From a virus: a DNA stretch of 64,000 bases. The position numbers and the translations under genes were made by a program. Below are positions 3,001 to 48,985 of the stretch, piece after piece. Where the stretch lies: the IMG/VR virus record IMGVR_UViG_3300021512_000004, positions 10,741 to 74,740 of that record. One strand, given 5' to 3'. The notes beneath the pieces were generated by a model. That model was given only the letters and a program-made list of their open reading frames with translations, did no database searches and was not told the DNA's origin. Position 1 is the first letter of the stretch. Each line of letters opens with the position of its first letter.

Positions 3001-4522
3001 ACCCTTGACCTAGGTGGGTGTTTAGCTCTTTGTGGGCTCCAGCAACATCCTTAACCCCTTTGGCCTGGGTCTTCGCCCCCTCAGCTGCCTTCTTAGTCGC
3101 AGTCGCCCTTTGAGCCTGAAGCTGTTTCACTTTCCTTTCTGACTCGGCTAAGGATTTGAGACGCGCATCTAGAGCCGTGACGGCTATTTGATATTTTCCT
3201 GACTCGTGAGTAAGCCGCTTTACGACCTTAATGTTGTCCCCTGCAGCGAGAGACCTGGCCTTCAAATCTGCAATATTGTCCTTAGCAAACTGCTTGAGTC
3301 TTTTAGCCGCTGCAGGATCCTGGACTCTACCTGCCTGTCCCTGCTTACCAAGATCCGCTACACTGCTCACTCCTAAGTTTTTCAGAAGGTTTGAAGGGGA
3401 TTGTGGATCACTGGCCGACCCCCGAGCAAAGGAGAGTCTGGACTCCCTCCTAACTCTAAGCTTTGCCTCTACTAAGGATTTCCTTTCTACAGCTGCTCTC
3501 TGCTTCTTTAGGGCTACTTCTTTCTTAAGCTGTGCGGCAGCTTTAGTTTCCTGCTTCTGCAGAACTCTTCTTACTGCAGCAACCTTCTCCAACTGTCTAT
3601 TATTCTTGAGGATCTGCTCAGAATAGTCGTGAGTCTCCTTCCCAAGCCTAGTATTTTCCTTGAGTAGTGCAGACTGTTCAGCATCTAAAGCTGACTTCGC
3701 CTTACTAACTAAATTGGGTGGCAGTGTTCCTGATCTTGCAGAAGAGGCAAGGGCTCCGACATCCCCTGAGCCAAAGACAGTTTGCCTTTGAGAGGCTCTG
3801 CCTTGAGAGGACTTTAAGTATGCTGCGTCCCTAGTCGCTCTGGAGGAAATCCCCTTGCGAGCCTCAATATTTTGATCTTGAGTTCTTCGGATCTTTGAAG
3901 TTATGCTGGACAGTTCAGAGGTGTCTTTAGAGAACTGCTTGTTAAACCCTATCAGCCCTGCCTTAAGATCCTCAAGCCCTGGGACGTTCCTAAGTCCGTG
4001 GATAGCCTCGGAGATCGCACTTTTCGTTGCCTCTTGAGCAGTAACCTGCCGGGTAACCCCGCTCCTTTGGAGAGGTCCCATACCTTCTAGGCGTTTTCTG
4101 GAGATCCTCTGATCCCCAATTCCAACCAGGCTCTGAGCCCTGCGAGCGTGAGCCCCACCAAGGCCCTTATTGGCTCTGACAACTTCATTGGTTCTACGGG
4201 CAACTGCTTTCAGCGCCTCTGCTTGTTGATACAGGGCGTCCGTTCTGGACTTAACCTTAGAGGTAAACGACTCTAGTTGGGACTTTGAAAGCCCTTCTGT
4301 AGACTTCTTCCCAACCTCTTCTATTGCAGCTATTCCGGCTTGAGCCTGCTTCTGGAATCCTTTTATAGCCGAGTCTAACGACTTAATAGACTTTCGTTTG
4401 TCTGCAGGAGACTGGAAGTCTCCTCTGGCTATTTTTTCGAGTTGCTTAACGGCATCAGAGGTGTCAAAGACCACCTTAGCTGGAAGGGTTAGGACATCTC
4501 CTGAGCTGCTCTTGGTGGCCAT
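1..4522 (-). CDS. Tail tape measure protein, TP901-family core (3' end beyond window edge)
   Basis: Missing from the ORF track, presumably because no stop falls in the window. ATG at 4522 (MATKSSSGDVLTLPAKVVFD...). Manual translation of about 2100-3000 gives LYSLQAVAGVTDKGM...TTKFTTDEIARTARVLAQAGV...LANQLTKAINISKLT...LRNAGIKPSTVATGLRQAI, typical of the TP901 TMP domain. Long, Ala/Leu/Lys-rich, and follows the tail tube and chaperone genes. Confidence 0.9.
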   Translation of the reverse strand, partial: MATKSSSGDVLTLPAKVVFDTSDAVKQLEKIARGDFQSPADKRKSIKSLDSAIKGFQKQAQAGIAAIEEVGKKSTEGLSKSQLESFTSKVKSRTDALYQQAEALKAVARRTNEVVRANKGLGGAHARRAQSLVGIGDQRISRKRLEGMGPLQRSGVTRQVTAQEATKSAISEAIHGLRNVPGLEDLKAGLIGFNKQFSKDTSELSSITSKIRRTQDQNIEARKGISSRATRDAAYLKSSQGRASQRQTVFGSGDVGALASSARSGTLPPNLVSKAKSALDAEQSALLKENTRLGKETHDYSEQILKNNRQLEKVAAVRRVLQKQETKAAAQLKKEVALKKQRAAVERKSLVEAKLRVRRESRLSFARGSASDPQSPSNLLKNLGVSSVADLGKQGQAGRVQDPAAAKRLKQFAKDNIADLKARSLAAGDNIKVVKRLTHESGKYQIAVTALDARLKSLAESERKVKQLQAQRATATKKAAEGAKTQAKGVKDVAGAHKELNTHLGQGSLLIRQFFRFALGYGALYQVLGAVNALARGLVSLDKELYSLQAVAGVTDKGMVGIEASIKRVAITTKFTTDEIARTARVLAQAGVEADNIPKVLESVAQFAAATDSGLELAADLLTTMRNVFKDMDEIDLANQLTKAINISKLTAGDLKTILSLSSQIADSYNLTSEQYLAAATTLRNAGIKPSTVATGLRQAITELFTPSNKAIGALETRYKQLGENLSKATIKSMFAQFRHAENPLLSVLQELKRIGFADDAQALFGRSFNVRATNAITALIKNLDNLSEAEQRITFGQAAAEGSEIQMKSLANSLSNLGAAFTAFGDEVFGGGVRSLEGFVDVLTEAISGLVELDKSLKLAGEEGFAGTFAPGAVGAVAGGFLSKGVIGKVVGIVSGAVAGSAGSLAFQEEGVGSSEFVTALGLLGLAGSATGGKAKPKLSSASSLMKGGAKRAAQGKGAQAVKLFARALPRFLAGLGPLGIVLGIFSVVQLAASLFQANRTAMQVSADKVDAARGQLEDAEGNLQEVLRGVDEFDLDSSKGKGNAASGVLKIQEAQRDFSAGIRAVITDFDSLSQEAQKTILAAVEEYSSASLEVRGKVLLPKITGASTALSGKTLADLDQSLSRLSNLTSGMDGAISGVIVELQLMSEKAVEEVDRAIEGGIDLSDASQVFQNPKLLQALKTIEVGASSQQISDLIDGTSTLSRDERIKAIAAYITSIKESIQALSPELIAVRDAVKQNLQKETFKKILTLAGTKGVGDQVVKQALLAAVKDADFTDPDSLLQVWAEAQAERISELSGDAVGAEVIGQALLKSPIAKVNKYLGDIVSTASEQAEKLIESQRQETLSAIGQFESAQGGEDLNKVLKSNEAGSLSSQVAQVRKAGGDIPALRKKVEQAEVVDGKLSLPPAIESIVKIMELWRSFQASAFADKQAIKDAERLLSDPKAKTEISRLTKEINRGLRGKERSSLEDLAKTDDNDLISKRLSLQKKEQEKVLENIRRDLQGQ

Positions 4523-4575: not shown

Positions 4576-5169
4576 CTAAAAACCTACAGATTTAGCCGCA
4601 GCTGCCATTTTGGAGAAAGACGCAGCATCCGTGACTTCATGGGTATTAGCATCGGTGGCAGGGGGGAGGTTTGACTTACTGTCTGAATAGCCTCCGCCGA
4701 AACCAAACAAACAGGCTTCGTATCTTTGGGTTAGAGTCTGCCACAAGAATCTATATTTTAAGGAGATGGATAGGTCTACAGCTTGGACAGGGGTGTTGCA
4801 GTAGTGGTGGGAAGCTTTGTCAAAATCGTACTCATAAACATAAAGCAAAGACTCCTGCAGGGTGAGTCCTTTTGTGAACTCTGCTAATTGAGTTCCAAGC
4901 CCCGGCTTTGGGTCAGGTTTCTTCTGCTTATTAACTTCCTCAGAAAGCTTTTTCTTCTCTTTAGAAACTTCATTAAGGGCCGCAGAGACGGATTGTAGAA
5001 ACTCCTCAGAGTATGGTGGAGGGTGTCCGCAAGCTTTCAGTACTGGAAGTAGCGCCTCCTTGAGAGAACATCCTGGACTCTCTTCCACACTCCGCTCCAA
5101 CAACTCCATAAACAGGTAGGTTATCGGGAACTCTTCCTTGTGGGAGTAGTGATAGAATAAAGTACTCAT
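4576..5169 (-). CDS. Putative tail assembly chaperone
   Basis: Position between tail tube and tape measure; synteny only. Confidence 0.55.
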   Translation of the reverse strand: MSTLFYHYSHKEEFPITYLFMELLERSVEESPGCSLKEALLPVLKACGHPPPYSEEFLQSVSAALNEVSKEKKKLSEEVNKQKKPDPKPGLGTQLAEFTKGLTLQESLLYVYEYDFDKASHHYCNTPVQAVDLSISLKYRFLWQTLTQRYEACLFGFGGGYSDSKSNLPPATDANTHEVTDAASFSKMAAAAKSVGF

Positions 5170-6788: not shown

Positions 6789-7246
6789 AACCTTATCCCG
6801 GCAACGTGGTCAAATACCTGAGGATCCAAGGAGATCCCAGTAACGTATAGACTACCTCTACCTTCTATGGCCGAATGCCCTCTGTAGTCCCCTAAAGGGA
6901 TAGTTTTCCCCTTCTCAAAGAGATTATGGATCTCTGCAGACAGGTCTGATAGTTTGTAATTTCCAACATCTGATACCGTTCTAGCTCCGGCAAGAAATGT
7001 GGCTGTGTATAGTGGATCGTGAGGAGAAGGTTGCACTGACTCAAAGGACCACACAATGACTGGGTTCTTAGCCTTCAGGATGGAGTCTACCTGCGTCACA
7101 TCGTCCATCTCAACTCCCTTGATACGTCTCCAGTCGCCTCCTCTAGCCCTCAAGGTATCGACCAAATCCAACATCACTTTATCAAGGGTGGACTTAACCA
7201 GTATCGCTACTTCACTCACTGCCAACCGCCTTGCCTTTGGCTCCAA
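6752..7246 (-). CDS. Putative tail terminator / head-tail joining protein
   Basis: Size and synteny. Confidence 0.45.
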   Translation of the reverse strand: MEPKARRLAVSEVAILVKSTLDKVMLDLVDTLRARGGDWRRIKGVEMDDVTQVDSILKAKNPVIVWSFESVQPSPHDPLYTATFLAGARTVSDVGNYKLSDLSAEIHNLFEKGKTIPLGDYRGHSAIEGRGSLYVTGISLDPQVFDHVAGIRFWSITSRVQRFI

Positions 7247-7814
7247 TCAGATCAAGGGTGTCGTAAACTTCATCCACGTTATACCTAAAACCATTTTCGA
7301 GAACTATGTAACAGTCTGAGTCTACTGGCGCTTCCTTAGGGAACGTGATATTTACCCTAGAGTACTCAACCTCTTCAAACTTTCTGGCAGAAGTAGCGGA
7401 GTACCTTTCTATATCTACCCAAAACTTCCCTAAGACTTCAACCCCAGACGATTGCCTAGCCCCTGAGGACCTTTCCAAATAAGACTGCTTACACAATTTC
7501 ACCTTATGGGGGGCGGCCCTAACAAGGTAAAACCTGCCATAGGAATCCCCTGCCCAGGCGTCCTGATTGCTGCTTTCCAGAAGGAATACGGTATCAACCG
7601 ACTCCAACTTATACGCTGGGTACCCTTCCGGCAATGTGTCGTCCCCGGAGAGGTGCAGTATTCTTTTCTTTTGGCCAAAAGTTCTTTCGGTTATGAACCT
7701 ATCAAAAGTAGACAGTCTGGCTTTAACACCAACACTAACCCACTTCTCTCTGTCGGAGTTCCATCCGTATACTTGTAGATCACAAAACTTGCCGATGGCT
7801 CTCCCTAAATTCAT
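7212..7814 (-). CDS. Putative head closure protein
   Basis: Synteny; translationally coupled to its neighbours. Confidence 0.45.
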   Translation of the reverse strand: MNLGRAIGKFCDLQVYGWNSDREKWVSVGVKARLSTFDRFITERTFGQKKRILHLSGDDTLPEGYPAYKLESVDTVFLLESSNQDAWAGDSYGRFYLVRAAPHKVKLCKQSYLERSSGARQSSGVEVLGKFWVDIERYSATSARKFEEVEYSRVNITFPKEAPVDSDCYIVLENGFRYNVDEVYDTLDLIGAKGKAVGSE

Positions 7815-8293
7815 TACTGTCCCGTAACCGCGTCTATGTCTGGAGAGGACACTCCCAACGGGGAGATCACTTCAGACGACCCGCTCCCTCCAAGGATAGC
7901 TGCGCTTAAGAGGTTCTTATACTTAGCCGCCCTGGAGGAAGCGAAGGAGACTATTTTATCTGGGTCATAGTTGGAGAACCTTTCAATCTTCGCCTTTCCG
8001 TCTGAAGTAGACTTTGGGAAAAGAAGAGGTCTAGCCGCTATCTCCTTGGCACAGAACCACCTTGAGTACAGGAGGAGGTGGGACCTGTTAGCCTTTTGGT
8101 CAGATGTGGCCAAGGCCGCCTTCCCTTCGGAGTCAACGGTAGAGTGGGTAGGAAGCCACGAATCAAGGTCAGATATCAGCTCCAGATCCATCCCCGAATC
8201 CACTATGATTCTGTCTGGGCAGTCTGATTCGTCAATCCCTAAACAAGCCCTGATAGAGGCTGTTCCGGTGTAACCTACGACCGAATTTTGCAC
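7814..8293 (-). CDS. Putative head-tail adaptor
   Basis: N-terminal YT...IRACLGID pattern typical of adaptor proteins; synteny. Confidence 0.5.
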   Translation of the reverse strand: MQNSVVGYTGTASIRACLGIDESDCPDRIIVDSGMDLELISDLDSWLPTHSTVDSEGKAALATSDQKANRSHLLLYSRWFCAKEIAARPLLFPKSTSDGKAKIERFSNYDPDKIVSFASSRAAKYKNLLSAAILGGSGSSEVISPLGVSSPDIDAVTGQ

Positions 8294-8295
8294 AA

Positions 8296-8526
8296 CTAGC
8301 CCCTAATTACCAAGAGTCCTGCGGATAGTTGAACATCTAGCCAGGAGCCTTCCTTGCACTTACTGATATCAAGTAAGGTAGGAACCTTGCTGAAAGAGAT
8401 GCCACGAGCAGAGTCAAATAAACTCCCATTGACCTTATCGGAGGTAGTGATGACACTCTCCCCTCTAGGGTATTTAGTCTTCTTGCTGCCGGGGGAGGCT
8501 ACCTTGTTTTGTGTCTGTAAAGCCAT
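8296..8526 (-). CDS. Hypothetical virion morphogenesis protein
   Basis: RBS (GAGG) and ATG downstream of the capsid terminator. Confidence 0.5.
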   Translation of the reverse strand: MALQTQNKVASPGSKKTKYPRGESVITTSDKVNGSLFDSARGISFSKVPTLLDISKCKEGSWLDVQLSAGLLVIRG

Positions 8527-8545
8527 AATACATACCTCTCAAATT

Positions 8546-8585
8546 AAGAAAAACATGAGGAAGGGGTTAAGGGAACCCCTTCCTC
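8546..8585 (-). terminator. Rho-independent terminator after major capsid gene
   Basis: GAGGAAGGGGTT-loop-AACCCCTTCCTC stem followed by a U-rich run on the minus strand. Confidence 0.7.
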
Positions 8586-8592
8586 GAAGGAC

Positions 8593-9792
8593 CTACACGG
8601 TCAGGGTCATAACGTCAAAAGCGTCAGTGTACAGCTTATGAGACAGCTCGCCATAATCCACACGGAAGCCAGTAGCTCGACGCAGAAGGAAGTTCTCTAT
8701 CGCGCTGTAGTTAGCCGATATGTTGACTACCTTGCGAATAGCGAACCGACTATCAAGCCCGACAATCGTATTGGCGGGAATTACTCCGTCCTCTACAATC
8801 AACACTCGAGGAGCTTGGATAGACAGGTTATCCACTGTCATATCAATCGGGAACTCGCCGCCAGGAACAAACACAGTATCTCGACGTGGCTTGCCAGTAC
8901 GAGCTTCAACAGCCAGAGCGGTATCAAGCGTCATAATAGTACGGTTGATATTTCTCTTCCGGTAATTAAGTCTCAGGTACTTAAGCCAAGCTTCGTGAGT
9001 AATAACCCCGGCAGCAACAATGCTGGAATCAAGAGTATCTGCCTGGAAAGTCGCAAGAGCTACTTCACCACGATCCACGTCACCAGCAACGATTCCAGAG
9101 ATGTGCTCCTCAACCATACGAACACGCTCACCGCGAGCTTGAGCAGTCATAGCCAAAGACACAAGATCCAAGGTAGACGTGCTTTGAGCTTGATCAGAGA
9201 TCATCAGGCCGATAGATTTGGTAGTGATGGTCTTACTAACTTCGCTGACAGTGATGCTCACCATCGCGTCTGGCTCTGCCAATTGCGAGATAGGGTTGCT
9301 GGAGTTAGACTCTGGAGCCGTAACATTGATGATCGGTTGCTCAAACTTCGGACCAGAAATCGTAGCCGTCTGGGCAATCATGCTTTCCCAACCAGAGAGG
9401 AAGTCATCGTGAGAGTTGCGAAGTTCACTTTCGATAGTTCGCATGATGATTTCAGGGAACAGCAATCGACCTGACGCAGTGTTATTACCGCTGCCGTCAT
9501 TTCGAGTGATTGCTCCAACCTGGATGCCGTCCTGGGCAACTGCCTTCATAGTAGGAGGCTTAATTCCTGTGGCAACGTCTTCACCAAGATACATCCCTGC
9601 ACTGGCCATAAACTGACCAATAACAGTTCCGTACTTGCCTTCGTCAGTTTTGTTACCGTGCTGCTGAGTAAGGTACTGAGTCAGAGATAAGCCGTTATCC
9701 GCTGCAACCTGATACTCTTTAATATTGAAGGCCACCTCTTGCGCGTTTCCTTCGGAGTCTCGCAGCTTAAATACACTTTCGTTCTCGTTCAT
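8593..9792 (-). CDS. Major capsid protein (HK97-like)
   Basis: 399 aa; order portal-protease-decoration-capsid; followed by a terminator. Confidence 0.8.
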   Translation of the reverse strand: MNENESVFKLRDSEGNAQEVAFNIKEYQVAADNGLSLTQYLTQQHGNKTDEGKYGTVIGQFMASAGMYLGEDVATGIKPPTMKAVAQDGIQVGAITRNDGSGNNTASGRLLFPEIIMRTIESELRNSHDDFLSGWESMIAQTATISGPKFEQPIINVTAPESNSSNPISQLAEPDAMVSITVSEVSKTITTKSIGLMISDQAQSTSTLDLVSLAMTAQARGERVRMVEEHISGIVAGDVDRGEVALATFQADTLDSSIVAAGVITHEAWLKYLRLNYRKRNINRTIMTLDTALAVEARTGKPRRDTVFVPGGEFPIDMTVDNLSIQAPRVLIVEDGVIPANTIVGLDSRFAIRKVVNISANYSAIENFLLRRATGFRVDYGELSHKLYTDAFDVMTLTV

Positions 9793-10301: not shown

Positions 10302-11789
10302 TTACTGAAGAGTCAGCTTACGGTTTGCATTCTCTACCGCGTGGTTTACTACAGACTTCTCTCCCTTCGAGTCCGCATCGCTTGGAACCTCAGCAGAAGC
10401 TCCTGCACGGTACTTAGCATTAAATATGCTGTGTACTCTGTTGTACTGGGAAATGACCAAAGAAACGTCCATTCCGTCCATCTTGGATACCATGCCTCCA
10501 AGGGGGAGCTGCATCCGGTTCGTGACGTCAATAACTATCTTGGTAAGTGCTACCTCCGTAGACTTCGCCTTAGTCAACTCAGACTGTGAAGCTGTCAGGT
10601 CGGCCTTGCTTTGTGCCAATTCAGTAGATAGCGAAGTTACCTTATCGAGCAAGGTTTCCAAAGTCTTATCAGGGGCAGCTTGAAGCGTAACTCCTTCCTC
10701 GACTTTGCCTTCAACTTCCTTAGCAGCTTCTTTACCTTCTTCTGCGGCAGCTTCAACTTTAGGGGCTTCTTTACCCTCCTCGGTTTCTGTGATCATTTTC
10801 GGATCAGCCAAAACCTCAGCTTCTGGAGCTCCAGAAGCGATGGCTGCTACTGCTTCCTTAGTTAGAACTTTTTTCTTCATATCAAACTCACTCAAGTTAA
10901 TGTGTTGGTTGACCTCAAGACCTTCCACGTTGTTCTTGTGCTTACTGGAGATATGCTCAACTACTCTGTCAAACGTATCTATTGAATCCACAAGACCTAC
11001 AGGAACTGCCTCAGCCCCTATAAATACCCTGCCTTCTGCGGCAGTGGCTATTAAAGCTGGAATAGGGATACCTCGGTAGTCTGATACAGTCTCTAGGAAT
11101 ACATTATAAATGGAATCCATTTGGGCCTCTATCTGCTCACGGGCTTTACCATCCAACTTCTCATAAGGGGTTCCAAGACTCTTGTACTCCCCTTTACGAA
11201 TAACTGTAACCTCTACTCCATCTTTCTTCAACCTCTCAGCATAACTGGCGTGAGTGGTTATCACCCCGATGGAGCCTACTGTAGCCAACTTACCTGCGAA
11301 TATTTCCTTGGAGCTTGACCCAAGCCAGTACCCTCCAGAGGCCATAACGGTGTCAGTGAAAGCATAAACGGGACAGAGGCTGTCATTCACCTCTCGAATG
11401 AAATCCGCAGCCCCGGAAACTCCCGACGCACTTCCCCCAGGCGTCCCCAGAAGCAGCAGGACTGCTGACACTTCTGGGTGCTCTATCGCAGAGAAGACCG
11501 CATTTCTTATCTCCTCATAACTCACTACCCCAAAATACCGATTCCATCTATTGTTCTCAGTCACTAAAGGGCCGGAGATGCTGACTATTCCTACATTATT
11601 GTGGCGGGAGACCATGTATCCCATATCCCCAAACCCGTCTTGATCTTCATCTTCATCTTGAGGCCCGTATGAGGTGGATATAATGGCCTCAAGATCTTTT
11701 GGGGATGTCTCATTTACCTTAGTGAGGATATCTTGGTAAGTTTTAAAACTTCCCTCATCCCCTAACCAGATAGTGTGGTCGTTTTTCAC
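10302..11789 (-). CDS. S49 (SppA-like) prohead protease fused to a scaffold region
   Basis: TPGG, MASGGYWLGS, VGSIGV and GEYKSLG motifs of S49 peptidases; acidic coiled-coil C-terminal half. Confidence 0.88.
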   Translation of the reverse strand: MKNDHTIWLGDEGSFKTYQDILTKVNETSPKDLEAIISTSYGPQDEDEDQDGFGDMGYMVSRHNNVGIVSISGPLVTENNRWNRYFGVVSYEEIRNAVFSAIEHPEVSAVLLLLGTPGGSASGVSGAADFIREVNDSLCPVYAFTDTVMASGGYWLGSSSKEIFAGKLATVGSIGVITTHASYAERLKKDGVEVTVIRKGEYKSLGTPYEKLDGKAREQIEAQMDSIYNVFLETVSDYRGIPIPALIATAAEGRVFIGAEAVPVGLVDSIDTFDRVVEHISSKHKNNVEGLEVNQHINLSEFDMKKKVLTKEAVAAIASGAPEAEVLADPKMITETEEGKEAPKVEAAAEEGKEAAKEVEGKVEEGVTLQAAPDKTLETLLDKVTSLSTELAQSKADLTASQSELTKAKSTEVALTKIVIDVTNRMQLPLGGMVSKMDGMDVSLVISQYNRVHSIFNAKYRAGASAEVPSDADSKGEKSVVNHAVENANRKLTLQ

Positions 11790-43822: not shown

Positions 43823-44581
43823 ATGAAAAACATACAATTGAAAATACTGAGTCCGCTAGTAGGAAATGAGTTCCCAATTCCAGCTTACTCAACAGAGGGA
43901 TCTGCCGGAATGGATCTCAGGGCCTGCATTGAGCAGGAAATGGCTGTCAGTAAAGGAAAAGCAGTCTTAATCCCTACTGGGGTAGCTATACACATAGAAG
44001 ACCCTGCATACGCTGCAGTAATCTTACCAAGATCAGGTCTGGGCCATAAGCATGGAGTAGTCCTTGGCAATCTGGTGGGGCTGATTGACAGTAAAAATCA
44101 TAGGTAAATTGCTGTCATTAAATTCGGTGAATTGCTGGGAAATCCTTAGAGTTCTTATACCAAAGCGGAACTGGAAACGGTAAACGTAACGGTTTGAAAA
44201 GTTAAGAAATTGGACAATCAGCAGCCAAGACCCTGAAAAGTGTAAAAGTATGGGTAAGGTTCAACGACTAGGTGTTGAGTTAGCTAGACGATACTACACC
44301 CACGAGCGCCGGACACTTAAATTAAGTGAAGATATAGTCTGAACTTTAGGGAAACTTAAAGAAACAAGGATAAAGAGCCTTGTGATAACACGATGGATTA
44401 CCAAGGACAGTTGATGATCTCCTGCTGGAATAGGAGCGATGTGAGCTACATAGTGAAGCCTGGGGAGCGCATAGCCCAGTTGATCATTGTTCCTGTAGTG
44501 CAGGCAGAATTTGAAGTGGTTGAGGAGTTTAGCCAGAGTCAAAGAGGGGAGGGAGGATTTGGCAGTACTGGAGTTTGTTAA
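43823..44581 (+). CDS. dut: Trimeric dUTPase, intron-split: exon 1 43823-44092, exon 2 44396-44581 (151 aa)
   Basis: Motifs GSAGMDL, PRSGLG, GLIDS|DYQG, RIAQL and [10 protein letters not shown]; removing 44093-44395 restores motif III exactly in frame. Confidence 0.95.
44093..44395 (+). ncRNA. Group I self-splicing intron (IA-like, 303 nt, no homing endonuclease)
   Basis: P element AATTGCTGGGAA, Q AATCAGCAGCC, R GTTCAACGACTA and S AAGATATAGTCT. P1 exon UGACAGU pairs with GCUGUCA giving the U-G wobble; terminal G; P3 TTCGGTG/CGCCGGA; a P7.1 hairpin, P8 CACTTA/TAAGTG and a GAAA-capped P9. Confidence 0.93.
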
Positions 44582-45219: not shown

Positions 45220-45281
45220 GGCCGCTCCCAAAGAGGGGTAGGAGCGGCCCTACTAACATTGGAACTCCGCAGAGGGGGACA

Positions 45282-45616
45282 AGGCGCTCTGCGGAGTAGA
45301 AAGTATACCTTACAGGTTATGTACGTTCAATAGGAGTGGAGTTATGGCAAGCATTTTTGTAATGACAGACCCTATGTCTGAAGTTTACTACTCGCTGAAG
45401 GATAATCGGGTTAGAAAGTTCAACCTTCATGGGAAAACGCTGTATGACGAATATAAAGGGGTTTCTGCGGAAGGGTGGGAGGATGCGCTAGTAAAGTTCG
45501 TGAAACAGCAGCGATTGAATATAGATGGAGGGGAAGGACTTCCCTCATTCGTGTACGGCCTGATTGATAGAGGACTGCTGGAAGACTAACAGGCGCTCTG
45601 CGGAGTAGAAAGTATA
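45282..45616 (+). repeat. 26-bp direct repeat flanking ORF 45344-45589
   Basis: AGGCGCTCTGCGGAGTAGAAAGTATA at 45282 and 45591. Confidence 0.85.
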
Positions 45617-46507: not shown

Positions 46508-46644
46508 CCCCCGGGCTGGTTCCTTATAGTTGTAAATTTACTATTTGGAGCGTTAAACGTAAGGAATTTTACGCAGCTCTAACACCAGATTCAGCTGCGC
46601 GCTTGGCGCGTCCGCTGGAATTAATGTTAGATTGCGATTGATTT

Positions 46645-46884
46645 TTGGAGGATGAGAGAGTGGATAAAGCAAAAGAGATTCGCAGGGGATTTGTTGATAT
46701 TTGGAAATGGATAGGCTCGCCAGATTGTTGGTTTTTAATAATGGTTACGTTTTGCCTCTGGTGCATATTTTTAGCTCCAGAATCAGCTATCGCTGGGCTT
46801 GCGAATACATTTATTGTTATCGGGCTGGTTATAATTTGGCATTTGGCAAGAATCGCAAAATCCTTAGAGGACAAGGCAATCTAA
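46645..46884 (+). CDS. Cassette A gene: two-TM membrane protein
   Basis: Bounded by GTTAGATTGC...GCAATCTAAC; its stop is the TAA of TAAC. Confidence 0.7.
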   Translation: MEDERVDKAKEIRRGFVDIWKWIGSPDCWFLIMVTFCLWCIFLAPESAIAGLANTFIVIGLVIIWHLARIAKSLEDKAI

Positions 46885-46931
46885 CAACCAGCATAACGGG
46901 TGAGCGGATAATTTAACTGAGGATGGTGAGC

Positions 46932-47327
46932 ATGGAAAACCAGAACGAACAGAAGCAACAAGAAACCAGCGGTGAAGAAGCGAATCCGGTTGATGTAATT
47001 GTTAGTGCTCGCTGCCCGGACTGCGCTGCTCAGCCTGGCATGCTGCACAAGCTGGGCTGTGATGTTGAAAAATGCCCCGAATGCGGCTGGCAATATATCA
47101 GCTGTGACTGCCCCGCCGAAGAGACAACGGCTCCCCGCCTCCTCTGGTCTGGCGAATGGCCAGGGATAAGGGAGTGCCGCGAATTTGGATGGTATTCAAA
47201 ATTGGTTTCTGGGCGCGGCTGGGTGAGCTGTGACAAAAGCGAGCCTGGCGCAAGCGAGAGCCTCAACCGCCTTGCCGTTGACGCCACATGGGATAAAGAA
47301 AAAGGGCGCTACATACTAGAGAGCTAA
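46932..47327 (+). CDS. Cassette B gene: Cys-rich zinc-binding protein starting inside attC
   Basis: TGAGGA RBS and ATG lie within the attC loop; CPDC..H..GCD.E.CP.CG.Q..SC.C motif. Confidence 0.75.
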   Translation: MENQNEQKQQETSGEEANPVDVIVSARCPDCAAQPGMLHKLGCDVEKCPECGWQYISCDCPAEETTAPRLLWSGEWPGIRECREFGWYSKLVSGRGWVSCDKSEPGASESLNRLAVDATWDKEKGRYILES

Positions 47328-47398
47328 CGCTCGCATAAACTGCGGAGCGTCAGCGGAGTCAGATTTTCATGCGATTGTTATAAATCTGGAGTAGAACG

Positions 47399-47644
47399 AT
47401 GGCAACAAACAAATACGATTTGGACACAGCTTACATCGGAAAAAACCTTAAAATATTGCAGCGGGATATTGAGCAATATACCCCTCAAGAGATGAGGACA
47501 GCTTTGAACAAGCTGGCAGACACGTGCCATAACTTTGCTAAGTGCGGTCGCTGTAGCGGCTACAACACGTCAACGATGCGACACGATGCGGCTCACTGGT
47601 TTTGCTATGACTGCGCCGAGAAGTACCCACTAAAAGCCTTATAA
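47399..47644 (+). CDS. Cassette C gene: small protein with C-terminal zinc ribbon
   Basis: GGAG RBS; CGRC...CYDC; stop in TAAC. Confidence 0.7.
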   Translation: MATNKYDLDTAYIGKNLKILQRDIEQYTPQEMRTALNKLADTCHNFAKCGRCSGYNTSTMRHDAAHWFCYDCAEKYPLKAL

Positions 47645-47718
47645 CGCTCAATTAAACGGTTGCGTAGCAATCCGGTTTAAATTGCTTGTTATATTTAATA
47701 TTAATTCGGAGAAAAATC

Positions 47719-47967
47719 ATGAGTGAAATTGAAACAGTTGCAGCGAGTCTCACTATTGAAATGAATGTCACATGCCCTAATCCTGACTGCGGGGATTATA
47801 TAGATTTGCTGCGATCAGAGTATACGAACGGGGTGGATCATAATGAGGACGGGGGTTTGCTGCGCCAGATGTTCCCTGAAAATCATAGTAATGAAGATTT
47901 TGAGTGTGATGATGTCATTTGCACAAAATGCAAAACAATGTTCAATGTGCGCGAGCTGGAATGGTAG
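47719..47967 (+). CDS. Cassette D gene: zinc-ribbon protein
   Basis: GGAG RBS; CPNPDC...CTKC; bounded by GTTATATTTA...TAAATATAAC. Confidence 0.7.
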   Translation: MSEIETVAASLTIEMNVTCPNPDCGDYIDLLRSEYTNGVDHNEDGGLLRQMFPENHSNEDFECDDVICTKCKTMFNVRELEW

Positions 47968-48027
47968 TAAATATAACACCCTGCATAACGAGTGAGCGTG
48001 GACAACAAAATGAATGAGGTGAACACG

Positions 48028-48330
48028 ATGGGCAAGAACGAAGCCACGAAGACAGAACCCAGCGGCGAAGAAGCGAATCCAGTTGATGCACTTGTTATGC
48101 GGCAACTAGATAAAATCACTGGATATTTTCAGCCTAAACGCACGGAAACGCTGCGCGATGAAGCCCTGCCATTTGTTGGTCGGCTATTAACATTCGAGGC
48201 TCTTTGGCTGATAGATAAAGAAGATGGGGGCCCTTACGTCGGACAATGGGCGATGCGCCCGATTAATGAAGCAGGGGGCTGGTTGCCAATTGGGTGGGTT
48301 CCCGAAGAAGACATTAGACCTGCTACATAA
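48028..48330 (+). CDS. Cassette E gene: hypothetical protein starting inside attC
   Basis: GAGGTG RBS and ATG inside the attC loop; leader SGEEANPVD shared with cassette B. Confidence 0.7.
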   Translation: MGKNEATKTEPSGEEANPVDALVMRQLDKITGYFQPKRTETLRDEALPFVGRLLTFEALWLIDKEDGGPYVGQWAMRPINEAGGWLPIGWVPEEDIRPAT

Positions 48331-48412
48331 CACCCGATTCAGCTGCGCGTTTGGCGCGTCCGCTGGAATTAATGTTAGATTGCTAATTAATTAATTATGG
48401 GGCGATAACGAG

Positions 48413-48601
48413 ATGGCCGAAGTGAAGTTCTGGTGTGACAGCGGGGCAAACATCCATTCTTGCAATACTGAAACAGTTGATACCGTTGATGATTTAGGGT
48501 TAGACGAAGGGGAGTGGGAAAAGCTCACTGATGACGAAAGGCACAAGCATGTTAGGGATTGGGCTAATAACTACATAGAGATGGGGTGGGCAGCAATCTA
48601 A
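48413..48601 (+). CDS. Cassette F gene: small acidic protein
   Basis: Bounded by GTTAGATTGC...GCAATCTAAC. Confidence 0.7.
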   Translation: MAEVKFWCDSGANIHSCNTETVDTVDDLGLDEGEWEKLTDDERHKHVRDWANNYIEMGWAAI

Positions 48602-48643
48602 CGCCCACATAAGCGACTTGATGTGATTGTTATAAATGAAACT

Positions 48644-48808
48644 ATGAAAAAGTATATTTGCGTTAGGTGTTTAACCGTAATGAGCCGGGTTGAGCTTAGA
48701 GACGGAGCAAAACTTAAAAAGATTTCTATTGAGTTAAGCCGGAAAATTAAAATGTGCAAGTCTTGCACATGCCGGACTTTCTATAGTATTTAATTTGGGA
48801 GCAAGTAA
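48644..48808 (+). CDS. Cassette G gene (cassette end lost): 54-aa zinc-finger-like protein
   Basis: Manual translation MKKYICVRC...MCKSCTCRTFYSINLGSK. Confidence 0.5.
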
Positions 48809-48985
48809 ACGTAAGTAAAAAGACAGTTTTGAATGCTCCGAAGGTGAGCGTAGAGATAACTATTGTGTATATTGCAATGGGAAATATCGAGGTGTCCAGA
48901 GCATTACGACAATCACGAACAATCTAAGAAAGGCGCTACCGTCTTTCAAGGCAACATAATTAGATTGTTTTAAAGAGGGTAAAAT

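Follow-up and report, generated by a model that had tools for sequence, protein, structure and literature searches.

A probable integrase-less attC array in a phage early region with cassettes reversed relative to bacterial ones

In the classical integron cassettes of class 1 integrons and of sedentary chromosomal integrons such as that of V. anguillarum, the ORF is located on the top strand with the attC site 3' of it, and expression is driven from Pc. Integron biology assumes that attC strand selection serves to orient promoterless genes behind Pc. A recombination site can also supply the translation start to an adjacent gene, as attI1 does with the RBS, start codon and short leader of ORF-11. 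Toxin-antitoxin cassettes in chromosomal integrons are reverse-oriented. These cassettes carry their own promoter (PMC13108822). Recombination of the attC bottom strand is approximately 1000-fold more efficient than that of the top strand, a bias for which extrahelical bases, unpaired spacer and terminal structure are responsible (PMC8946536). Among phages, Pseudoalteromonas phage H101/PH101 is integrase-less and lytic and carries attC arrays among small genes; its sites recombine with IntI1, and the bottom strand of PH101_attC1 recombined with attI1 under this enzyme (PMC9892861). Tetrasphaera phage TJE1 (from PMC9892861) differs from the locus described here in its canonical polarity.

Here, a stretch of 64,000 nt (the window; positions 10,741 to 74,740 of the 74.7-kb IMG/VR phage record IMGVR_UViG_3300021512_000004) was analyzed, in which seven attC sites interleaved with small plus-strand genes occupy positions 46577-48635 of the early region (Table 1). 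The locus probably represents a genuine integron-type array that lacks an integrase and whose cassettes are reversed in comparison to bacterial ones. Like PH101, it combines attC sites with small genes in a phage without integrase; sites B and E are homologous to PH101_attC1, and the annotated PH101 genes likewise lie on the bottom strand. The window array differs from PH101 in being longer (seven sites) and in containing long sites with coding loops. No published description of a reversed cassette polarity in phages was found.

Table 1. Coordinates of the attC sites and genes of the array, with the predicted cleavage given as the two flanking positions.
Feature	Position	Strand	Size	Predicted cleavage	Remarks
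attC site A	46577..46632	+	56 nt	46582/46583	CTCTAAC ... GTTAGAT; 91% identical to F; fold, repeat family D2, motif scan
attC site B	46879..47007	+	129 nt	46884/46885	long type
attC site C	47322..47383	+	62 nt	47327/47328	AGCTAAC ... GTTATAA; bulged C
attC site D	47639..47694	+	56 nt	47644/47645	TTATAAC ... GTTATAT; bulged A
attC site E	47971..48100	+	130 nt	47976/47977	long type; PH101_attC1 bottom-strand match plus 72-nt loop insert
attC site F	48325..48380	+	56 nt	48330/48331	paralogue of A
attC site G	48596..48635	+	40 nt	48601/48602	3-nt loop; unusually short
Possible decayed eighth site or right array end	48930..48975	+			ATCTAAG ... TTAGATTGTTTTAA; 75% like right halves of C and G; repeat family D3, inverted repeat I10
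g1	46660..46884	+	74 aa		GTG start after GGAGGA; two hydrophobic segments; stop is TAA of site B left box
g2	46923..47327	+	131-134 aa		CxxC zinc-ribbon protein
g3	47399..47644	+	81 aa		zinc-ribbon-like; stop is TAA of site D left box
g4	47719..47967	+	82 aa		CxxC pairs; TAG stop at 47965-67, three codons ahead of site E
g5	48028..48330	+	100 aa		head common to g2 (SGEEANPVDxxV); tail unrelated
g6	48413..48601	+	62 aa		DUF7167 / phrog_8831, phage protein family
g7	48644..48793	+	49 aa		CxxC pairs; beyond the final full site

All seven sites follow the order xxxxAAC, spacer of 4-6 nt, L stem, loop, returning L stem, spacer and GTTxxxx. The AAC and GTT triplets are invariant (7/7) and provide the inverted core sites of an integron attC; the outer four box positions match RYYYAAC/GTTRRRY only partly (e.g. 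GTTATAA), and the same GTTAT deviation is also seen in bacterial sites adjacent to IntI. When A, D, F and G are folded as DNA, the features of a folded attC strand emerge, in agreement with the motif scan: unpaired spacer nucleotides separate the R stem from the L stem, and a single base is extrahelical in the L stem, bulging from its 3' arm on the plus strand. The same layout was recognized in B, C and E by inspection and motif scan. When scored by the scan, a 3'-arm bulge reaches 6-7 of 7 pairs in every site, against 4-5 of 7 for a 5'-arm bulge; the bulged base is a G in five of the seven. Site G falls below the classical attC length, the unstructured loops of B and E accompany poor folding of both sites, and C adopts a competing fold. 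The first version of the motif scan was frequently matched by chance at score 11, and its criteria were then tightened. Seven motif matches occur inside 2.1 kb, compared with three in the largest such cluster among 60 Markov simulations of 64 kb, and the rest of the window contains only three matches, all weak. The array resembles classical cassettes in its R boxes, unpaired spacer, L boxes with extrahelical base and variable loop, in the predicted bottom-strand cleavage between AA and C, and in an attC family that is found next to IntI in marine Gammaproteobacteria. This family points to a host among these bacteria.

The sequence-only reading had proposed that the attC layout is canonical only on the minus strand, with all seven sites inverted, and the plus-strand 3'-arm bulge in each of the seven bears this out. 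The assignment of the plus (mRNA-sense) strand as the attC bottom strand is supported by benchmarked bulge polarity, homology to attC sites that were tested or adjoin IntI, and a strand-specific profile search. As a benchmark, the bottom strands in Table S3 of Qi et al. (aadA7 and five phage sites) present the bulged G on the 3' arm (PMC9892861), and in the Vibrio anguillarum integron (MK672802), where intI defines the top strand, 16 sites have the bulge on the 5' arm of that strand. Sites B and E align with the bottom strand of PH101_attC1 (alignment A3), and the alignments of C and D have the same orientation. Profile R1 is a covariance model built from bacterial bottom strands; since its RNAalifold consensus does not represent the attC fold, it serves only as a strand-specific, mainly sequence-based profile. 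It matches window sites C (27.7 bits, E = 1.8e-5), D (E = 0.0024), E (E = 0.017) and G on the plus strand only, and four PH101 sites, also on the plus strand. On the Vibrio integron, R1 yields bottom-strand matches except for one that is weak, non-significant and outside the array (E = 1.2). Together with the alignments to PH101_attC1 and bacterial sites, R1 therefore provides a strand-specific match to bona fide integron attC, chiefly at the sequence level. The earlier suggestion that attC sits at the 5' end of each gene, with the mRNA-sense strand as bottom strand, agrees with the bulge, homology and profile tests, and a model favoring the opposite strand, named in advance as the outcome that would count against it, did not emerge, as the bacterial bottom-strand profile matches the window sites only on the plus strand.

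The plus-strand ORFs are real genes, as evident from their RBS, positive codon-usage scores for all but the ambiguous g1 (not separated from the antisense ORF 46569-46874), the family match of g6 and the homologues of g2. Most of the 21 database homologues of g2 begin 1-4 residues ahead of CPDC, a motif located just past the right box of site B. The encoded cargo is of phage type and agrees with the genome in GC content. The possibility that a fragment of a bacterial integron had been captured, the plus-strand ORFs being spurious, was also considered and was rejected on the basis of RBS, codon usage, family matches and GC content. All seven genes lie on the attC bottom strand with the site 5' of the gene, in contrast to the top-strand ORF and 3' attC of the canonical, Pc-expressed cassette. 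An antisense ORF relative to attC polarity is shared with the toxin-antitoxin cassettes, which are a minority with promoters in canonical arrays, whereas the window array is reversed throughout, encodes small proteins of phage early type and is no richer in promoter- or terminator-like sites than shuffled sequence. In five of six complete cassettes, the upstream gene terminates at the left-box TAA (46882-84, 47325-27, 47642-44, 48328-30 and 48599-601), exactly as had been noted from the sequence, with g4 as the exception. Since a stop inside RYYYAAC is typical of canonical cassettes too, the inverted call is based on bulge polarity, homology and linkage instead of on the stops. On the coding strand the unit reads 5'-C-attC-(RBS)-ORF-TAA-3', so that attC forms the 5' leader of the gene and the recombinogenic bottom strand is mRNA-sense.

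The long sites extend into coding sequence. The unstructured loop of B contains the RBS, the ATG (46923 or 46932) and approximately 25 codons of g2, and g5 obtains its RBS, start codon (ATG at 48028) and leader from the 72-nt loop insert of E. Both sites thereby supply a translation start and short leader as attI1 does, with the difference that the module resides in an attC loop, is read on the bottom strand and serves at least four unrelated proteins, on which it recurs at 75-88% identity. Inside B/E-type sites, homologous heads continue into four unrelated tails, with the joint precisely at the right-box GTT codon; a crossover at the left box alone is an insufficient explanation. In metagenome contig L274, the attC of g5 and the start of its tail follow a different gene, and identity to the window, ~83% within the loop, rises to 100% across the right arm and tail, a step that would also fit a right-box crossover. 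These four joints, the L274 step near the right box and the variable right-box tails of C-type copies that are otherwise 90% identical would be accommodated by a canonical polarity, in which the plus strand is the top strand, cassettes read TTRRRY-ORF-attC-G, crossover occurs between the right-hand G and TT, and the bulge misleads for this attC family or enzyme; the order of gene, stop within RYYYAAC, hairpin and next RBS likewise resembles classical cassettes. This polarity is nevertheless quite improbable, given the 3'-arm bulge in 7/7 sites, benchmarked on real integrons, and the bacterial loci in which the pattern orientation beside IntI is the bottom strand (4/4). Moreover, the start codon of the downstream gene lies inside the long sites of the window and of contigs L006 and L008, so a right-box cut would split genes, dividing g2 and g5 between cassettes.

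The moved units found in viral contigs also argue against canonical polarity. Contigs L211 and L212 share a block of 228 nt (98.7% identical) and L226 and L229 one of 313 nt (99% identical); in unrelated contexts, each block runs from its own left-box AAC to the next RYYYAAC. With both break points at RYYYAAC, attC-gene-TAA constitutes the mobile unit, and the cut is the canonical one between AA and C. Among viral pairs with similar attC cores, the downstream flank alone is conserved in three and the upstream flank alone in none. Related contigs carry the attC types of the window with different genes, and related arrays are present in the metagenome samples Ga0190303 and Ga0190313. The array had no megablast match in isolated phages, the exact A/F and B/E site patterns had none in viral contigs, and four IMG/VR relatives identified by their primase (42% identity) contained no such sites near the primase gene. 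As a separate observation, the stretch common to L088 and L008 comprises only a 25-nt left half and is uninformative about unit boundaries.

For a broader comparison, one attC sequence pattern was searched in bacterial and viral collections, resulting in 82 bacterial and 68 viral-contig sites, which are phylogenetically non-independent and for which gene strand was called from ORF length only. In bacteria, the opposite strand carries 80% of the flanking coding sequence (66 sites, versus 8 with same-strand coding), the bulge is on the 3' arm in 53 sites versus 3, and IntI lies on the expected side in 4/4 loci, where the pattern orientation corresponds to the bottom strand. In viral contigs, 73% of the coding sequence is on the same strand (48 sites same, 8 opposite), and the left box coincides with the stop of a same-strand ORF in 55/68 sites. 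The gene-strand contrast between both collections is strong (Fisher p = 1.2e-18), with the caveat that the sites are phylogenetically non-independent, and suggests that phages keep a separate, mirror-image cassette pool. The distinct class of phage cassettes postulated from the sequence gains support from this contrast for one attC pattern and from the moved attC-ORF units.

Searches for tyrosine recombinases (TIGR02249, PF00589) found none in the 74.7-kb record (90% complete), the complete L008 phage or PH101; Vibrio IntI gave no tblastn match in the record either. The array differs from a complete integron in the absence of intI from the record and of attI and Pc, no attI-like array end having been identified; with seven attC sites of one polarity in 2.1 kb and no integrase in the record, it classifies as a CALIN. 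The putative array ends lie within 46508-46576 and 48794-48985. An absent integrase is also what would be expected if the sites were attC-derived relics that no longer recombine and act either at the RNA level, as 5' leader hairpins with a role in stability, processing or the start of translation, or as hot spots of ordinary homologous recombination. The coding loops and poor folding of B and E, the competing structure of C, the possible decayed site at 48930-48975 (Table 1), the mutated left box in L273 and the truncated sites in L272 and L088 point in this direction; L272 and L273 carry 91% identical copies of site C. Relic status is unlikely, however, in view of intact AAC and GTT in 7/7 sites, single-bulge stems retained across three diverged site types, attC types shared by related contigs with differing genes, recent movement of near-identical units in relatives and the activity of the PH101 homologues with IntI1 (PMC9892861). 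The absence of IntI from the window phage, the L008 phage and PH101 could alternatively indicate another recombinase, either host Xer-type or an unrecognized phage protein, for which the hairpins merely resemble IntI substrates. This is highly improbable, as IntI homologues accompany the attC family both in bacteria and at two viral loci (L267 and L231, where the homologues adjoin co-oriented arrays) and IntI1 works on PH101 sites (PMC9892861).

For an array of reversed integron cassettes, an integron integrase from the host or a co-infecting element would fold the plus strand and cut the left box between A and C, directly past the stop codon; in some phages that carry arrays of this kind, the integrase may be self-encoded. 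Expression would rely on read-through of phage early transcription. If replication is co-directional with transcription, as GC skew allows, the bottom strands would reside on the lagging-strand template, favoring attC folding. Reversed polarity would separate phage and bacterial pools in expression, with the recombination chemistry common to both. The wider proposal that phages maintain a mirror-image cassette pool, and that long attC sites are in-frame translation-start heads re-joined to unrelated tails at the right-box GTT, appears to us evenly poised between true and false. It would unite the bacterial attC family and cleavage chemistry with genes on the bottom strand, so that each cassette would be a self-contained leader hairpin, ORF and TAA expressed by read-through; a phage cassette would be silent in a bacterial integron, and vice versa. 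The re-joining of heads and tails could perhaps proceed via rare recombination of the other strand.

If a large phage class of opposite polarity exists, attC/IntI chemistry would serve a second pool of genes that are expressed by rules of their own. Surveys that pair attC with the upstream ORF would misassign the contents of phage cassettes, and phage early genes, which likely function in host takeover or counter-defense, could be shuffled as units among unrelated phages. Such a class would also make it simple to test the influence of polarity on exchange between phage and host integrons. Among the paralogous sites of the window, the right box is kept in A/F and C/G and the left box in B/E, in what is a small number of cases.

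Seven hairpin sites (A to G, window 46577-48635) share a layout of left box (xxxxAAC), spacer of 4-6 nt, L arm, loop, returning L arm, spacer and right box (GTTxxxx). As ssDNA, sites A, D, F and G fold into an R stem and an L stem separated by an unpaired spacer, the L stem having a single bulged base, and the mapping by folding proposed in the sequence-only reading places this base on the 3' arm of the plus strand in all four. A scan for a defined motif picks up every one of the seven, with 6-7 of 7 pairs for a 3'-arm bulge versus 4-5 of 7 for the alternative, and per 2.1 kb it yields 7 hits in the array and never more than 3 in simulated sequences. The real genes are the plus-strand ORFs (g1 to g7), which possess ribosome-binding sites (RBS) and positive codon-usage scores, g1 being ambiguous. 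As noted earlier, five of the six genes lying between two sites take their stop codon from the left box that follows (TAA); the exception is g4 (TAG). The product of g6 matches DUF7167/phrog_8831, while for g2, a CxxC zinc-ribbon protein, the protein database contains 21 homologues, mostly metagenomic, and isolated actinophages contain matches too.

Coordinates of attC sites and associated features
Feature	Source	Positions	Remark
Site A	window	46577-46632	
Site B	window	46879-47007	long attC; loop with RBS, start codon and conserved leader
Site C	window	47322-47383	
Site D	window	47639-47694	
Site E	window	47971-48100	long attC, loop as B
Site F	window	48325-48380	
Site G	window	48596-48635	
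Long attC	L272	2611-2727	loop as B
Long attC	L273	714-845	loop as B
Long attC	L274	1053-1180	loop as B
C-type/A/F-type site	L272	3682-3785	GTTAGATTGC twice
Overlapping genes	L008	1917-1970	stop TGA overlaps ATG
IntI homologue and array	L267 (IMGVR_UViG_3300032255_000005)	6950-9548	
Antisense ORFs	PH101 (L085, NC_029094)	3263-3511; ~4750-4920	unannotated
Group I intron	window	44064-44361, plus strand	Rfam RF00028, 101.9 bits, E = 2.8e-25
Exact 26-nt direct repeat AGGCGCTCTGCGGAGTAGAAAGTATA	window	45282-45307; 45591-45616	
Hairpin involving first repeat copy	window	45260-45296	CTCCGCAGAG...CTCTGCGGAG

Since attC sites are near-palindromes, the polarity rule was benchmarked on known sites. Table S3 of Qi et al. 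2023 (PMC9892861) gives the bottom (recombinogenic) strands of attC-aadA7 and six phage sites, and five of the six phage sites recombined; the aadA7 strand is fixed by its known junction with the 3' conserved segment. The bulged base, mostly G, lies on the 3' arm in those bottom strands of the table that were parsed. The second benchmark was the Vibrio anguillarum prophage MK672802, whose top strand is known because the cassette array and intI diverge; in essentially all of its sites, the 5' arm of that strand carries the bulge. By the bulge rule from these two sources, the window plus strand is the bottom strand at 7 of 7 sites, which upholds the claim that all cassette genes run antisense to the canonical orientation, in which attC lies downstream of a co-oriented gene. 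Homology points the same way. The bottom strand of PH101_attC1 (GTGAGCGT ... AGCGAATC ... CACTTGTTAT) from Pseudoalteromonas phage H101 (PH101) aligns with sites B and E, with a 72-nt insert in the loop, and sites C and D align with it in the same orientation. A 53-sequence profile of bacterial bottom strands, which has a poor consensus structure and is taken as a strand-specific sequence test, matches C, D, E and G on the plus strand only and four PH101 sites on the plus strand; on the Vibrio integron, all matches fall on the bottom strand except a weak, non-significant one outside the array (E = 1.2).

The pattern TAAC-N15-35-GAGCGTAGCGA-N8-38-TTGTTAT, oriented as the PH101 bottom strand, was run on bacterial and viral collections. 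The bacterial matches comprised at least 120 stretches, from which 80 loci, mostly of marine Gammaproteobacteria, were retrieved and 82 sites analysed. Of these, 53 have a 3'-arm bulge and 3 a 5'-arm bulge; 80% of the coding sequence is on the strand opposite to the pattern (66 sites opposite, 8 same), and an opposite-strand ORF ends at the right box in 60 of 82. Four bacterial loci (L161, L133, L137 and L097) contain IntI homologues, and in each the homologue lies on the side predicted by taking the pattern strand as the bottom strand. Among the 68 viral sites (61 stretches), 73% of the coding sequence is on the pattern strand (48 sites same, 8 opposite), and a same-strand ORF ends at the left box in 55. 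Tabulated as the sequence-only reading had suggested, gene orientation thus shows opposite polarity in phage and bacterial arrays for one pattern (Fisher p = 1.2e-18, with sites non-independent as lineages and strand calls taken from ORF lengths). In the arrays of L008, a complete 65.6-kb phage, and L006, both reached via g2 homologues, the coding strand has a bulged G on its 3' arm. Of the three phages tested by Qi et al., Tetrasphaera phage TJE1 has canonical polarity, unlike the window, whereas PH101 has its annotated genes on the bottom strand, as in the window, and some antisense ORFs unannotated. Two PH101 cassettes contain such antisense ORFs with good ribosome-binding sites, each preceded by a repeated ~100-nt module adjoining the attC left box, one copy being truncated to 8 codons. 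A search of the paper library returned Qi et al. 2023 (PMC9892861), but nothing that describes phage arrays as having reversed polarity.

According to the published mechanism, the bottom strand folds and is cut at AA|C in its 5' arm, a position that in the window array would fall immediately 3' of the stop codon. When viral sites with similar attC cores are compared in pairs, conservation is confined to the downstream flank in 3 pairs and to the upstream flank in 0. Two pairs share blocks of 228 nt (L211/L212, 98.7% identity) and 313 nt (L226/L229, 99%). Each block begins with its own left-box AAC, spans attC, RBS and ORF, and stops at the TAA within the following RYYYAAC, with unrelated flanks on either side; each is a reversed cassette that has moved as a unit. 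The JGI contigs L272 and L273 carry the window attC types with other genes, at identities of 91% (C), 89% (D), 88-93% (A/F) and 76-86% (B/E), and in L274, where another gene lies upstream, homology to the window starts with the site E ATAAC and extends into g5. In one L272 stretch, a C-type attC runs straight into an A/F-type loop and right arm, which suggests a hybrid site or a rearrangement.

In B and E, the loop carries an RBS, a start codon and the coding sequence of a leader (..ETSGEEANPVDxxV). Heads homologous to these are fused in frame, with the GTT codon of the right box as the joint, to no fewer than four proteins that are unrelated to one another: g2, g5, one membrane protein (L272) and one Cys-rich protein (L273). 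Most g2 homologues start where the window right box ends. Such joints are not produced by left-box crossover; they might stem from rare recombination of the other strand or from homologous exchange in the conserved right arm. Identity between L274 and the window is ~83% in the loop and 100% across right arm and tail. In L008, the left box of a long attC lies within an ORF whose stop overlaps the start of the next gene inside the loop, so that one of the two genes would be severed whichever crossover point is used.

No tyrosine recombinase is encoded in the window's record, the L008 phage or PH101; the PH101 sites recombine with IntI1 (PMC9892861). IntI homologues adjoin the arrays of two viral loci, L267 and L231, with the array genes pointing toward intI. 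In L267, small genes each led by an attC form an array, and the homologue (46% identity to Vibrio anguillarum IntI) follows immediately downstream in the same orientation; the locus resembles a complete phage integron whose cassettes are reversed. Promoter- and terminator-like sites show no excess in the window array. GC skew there is strongly positive, and attC folding is reportedly favoured by a bottom strand on the lagging-strand template (PMC8946536); the skew, here inseparable from transcription, is compatible with such a placement.

The IMG/VR virus record is linear, 74.7 kb long and ~90% complete, the window covering bases 10741-74740. Structural genes occupy the minus strand up to ~22 kb, and early and replication genes the plus strand beyond; the primase shares just 26% identity with isolated Vibrio and Pseudomonas phages. 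A group I intron lies upstream of the array. The two AGGCGCTCTGCGGAGTAGAAAGTATA copies each follow one of two successive genes, the second being preceded by GACTAAC with the stop codon within TAAC, and the repeat possibly acts as a promoter or regulatory element of the phage.
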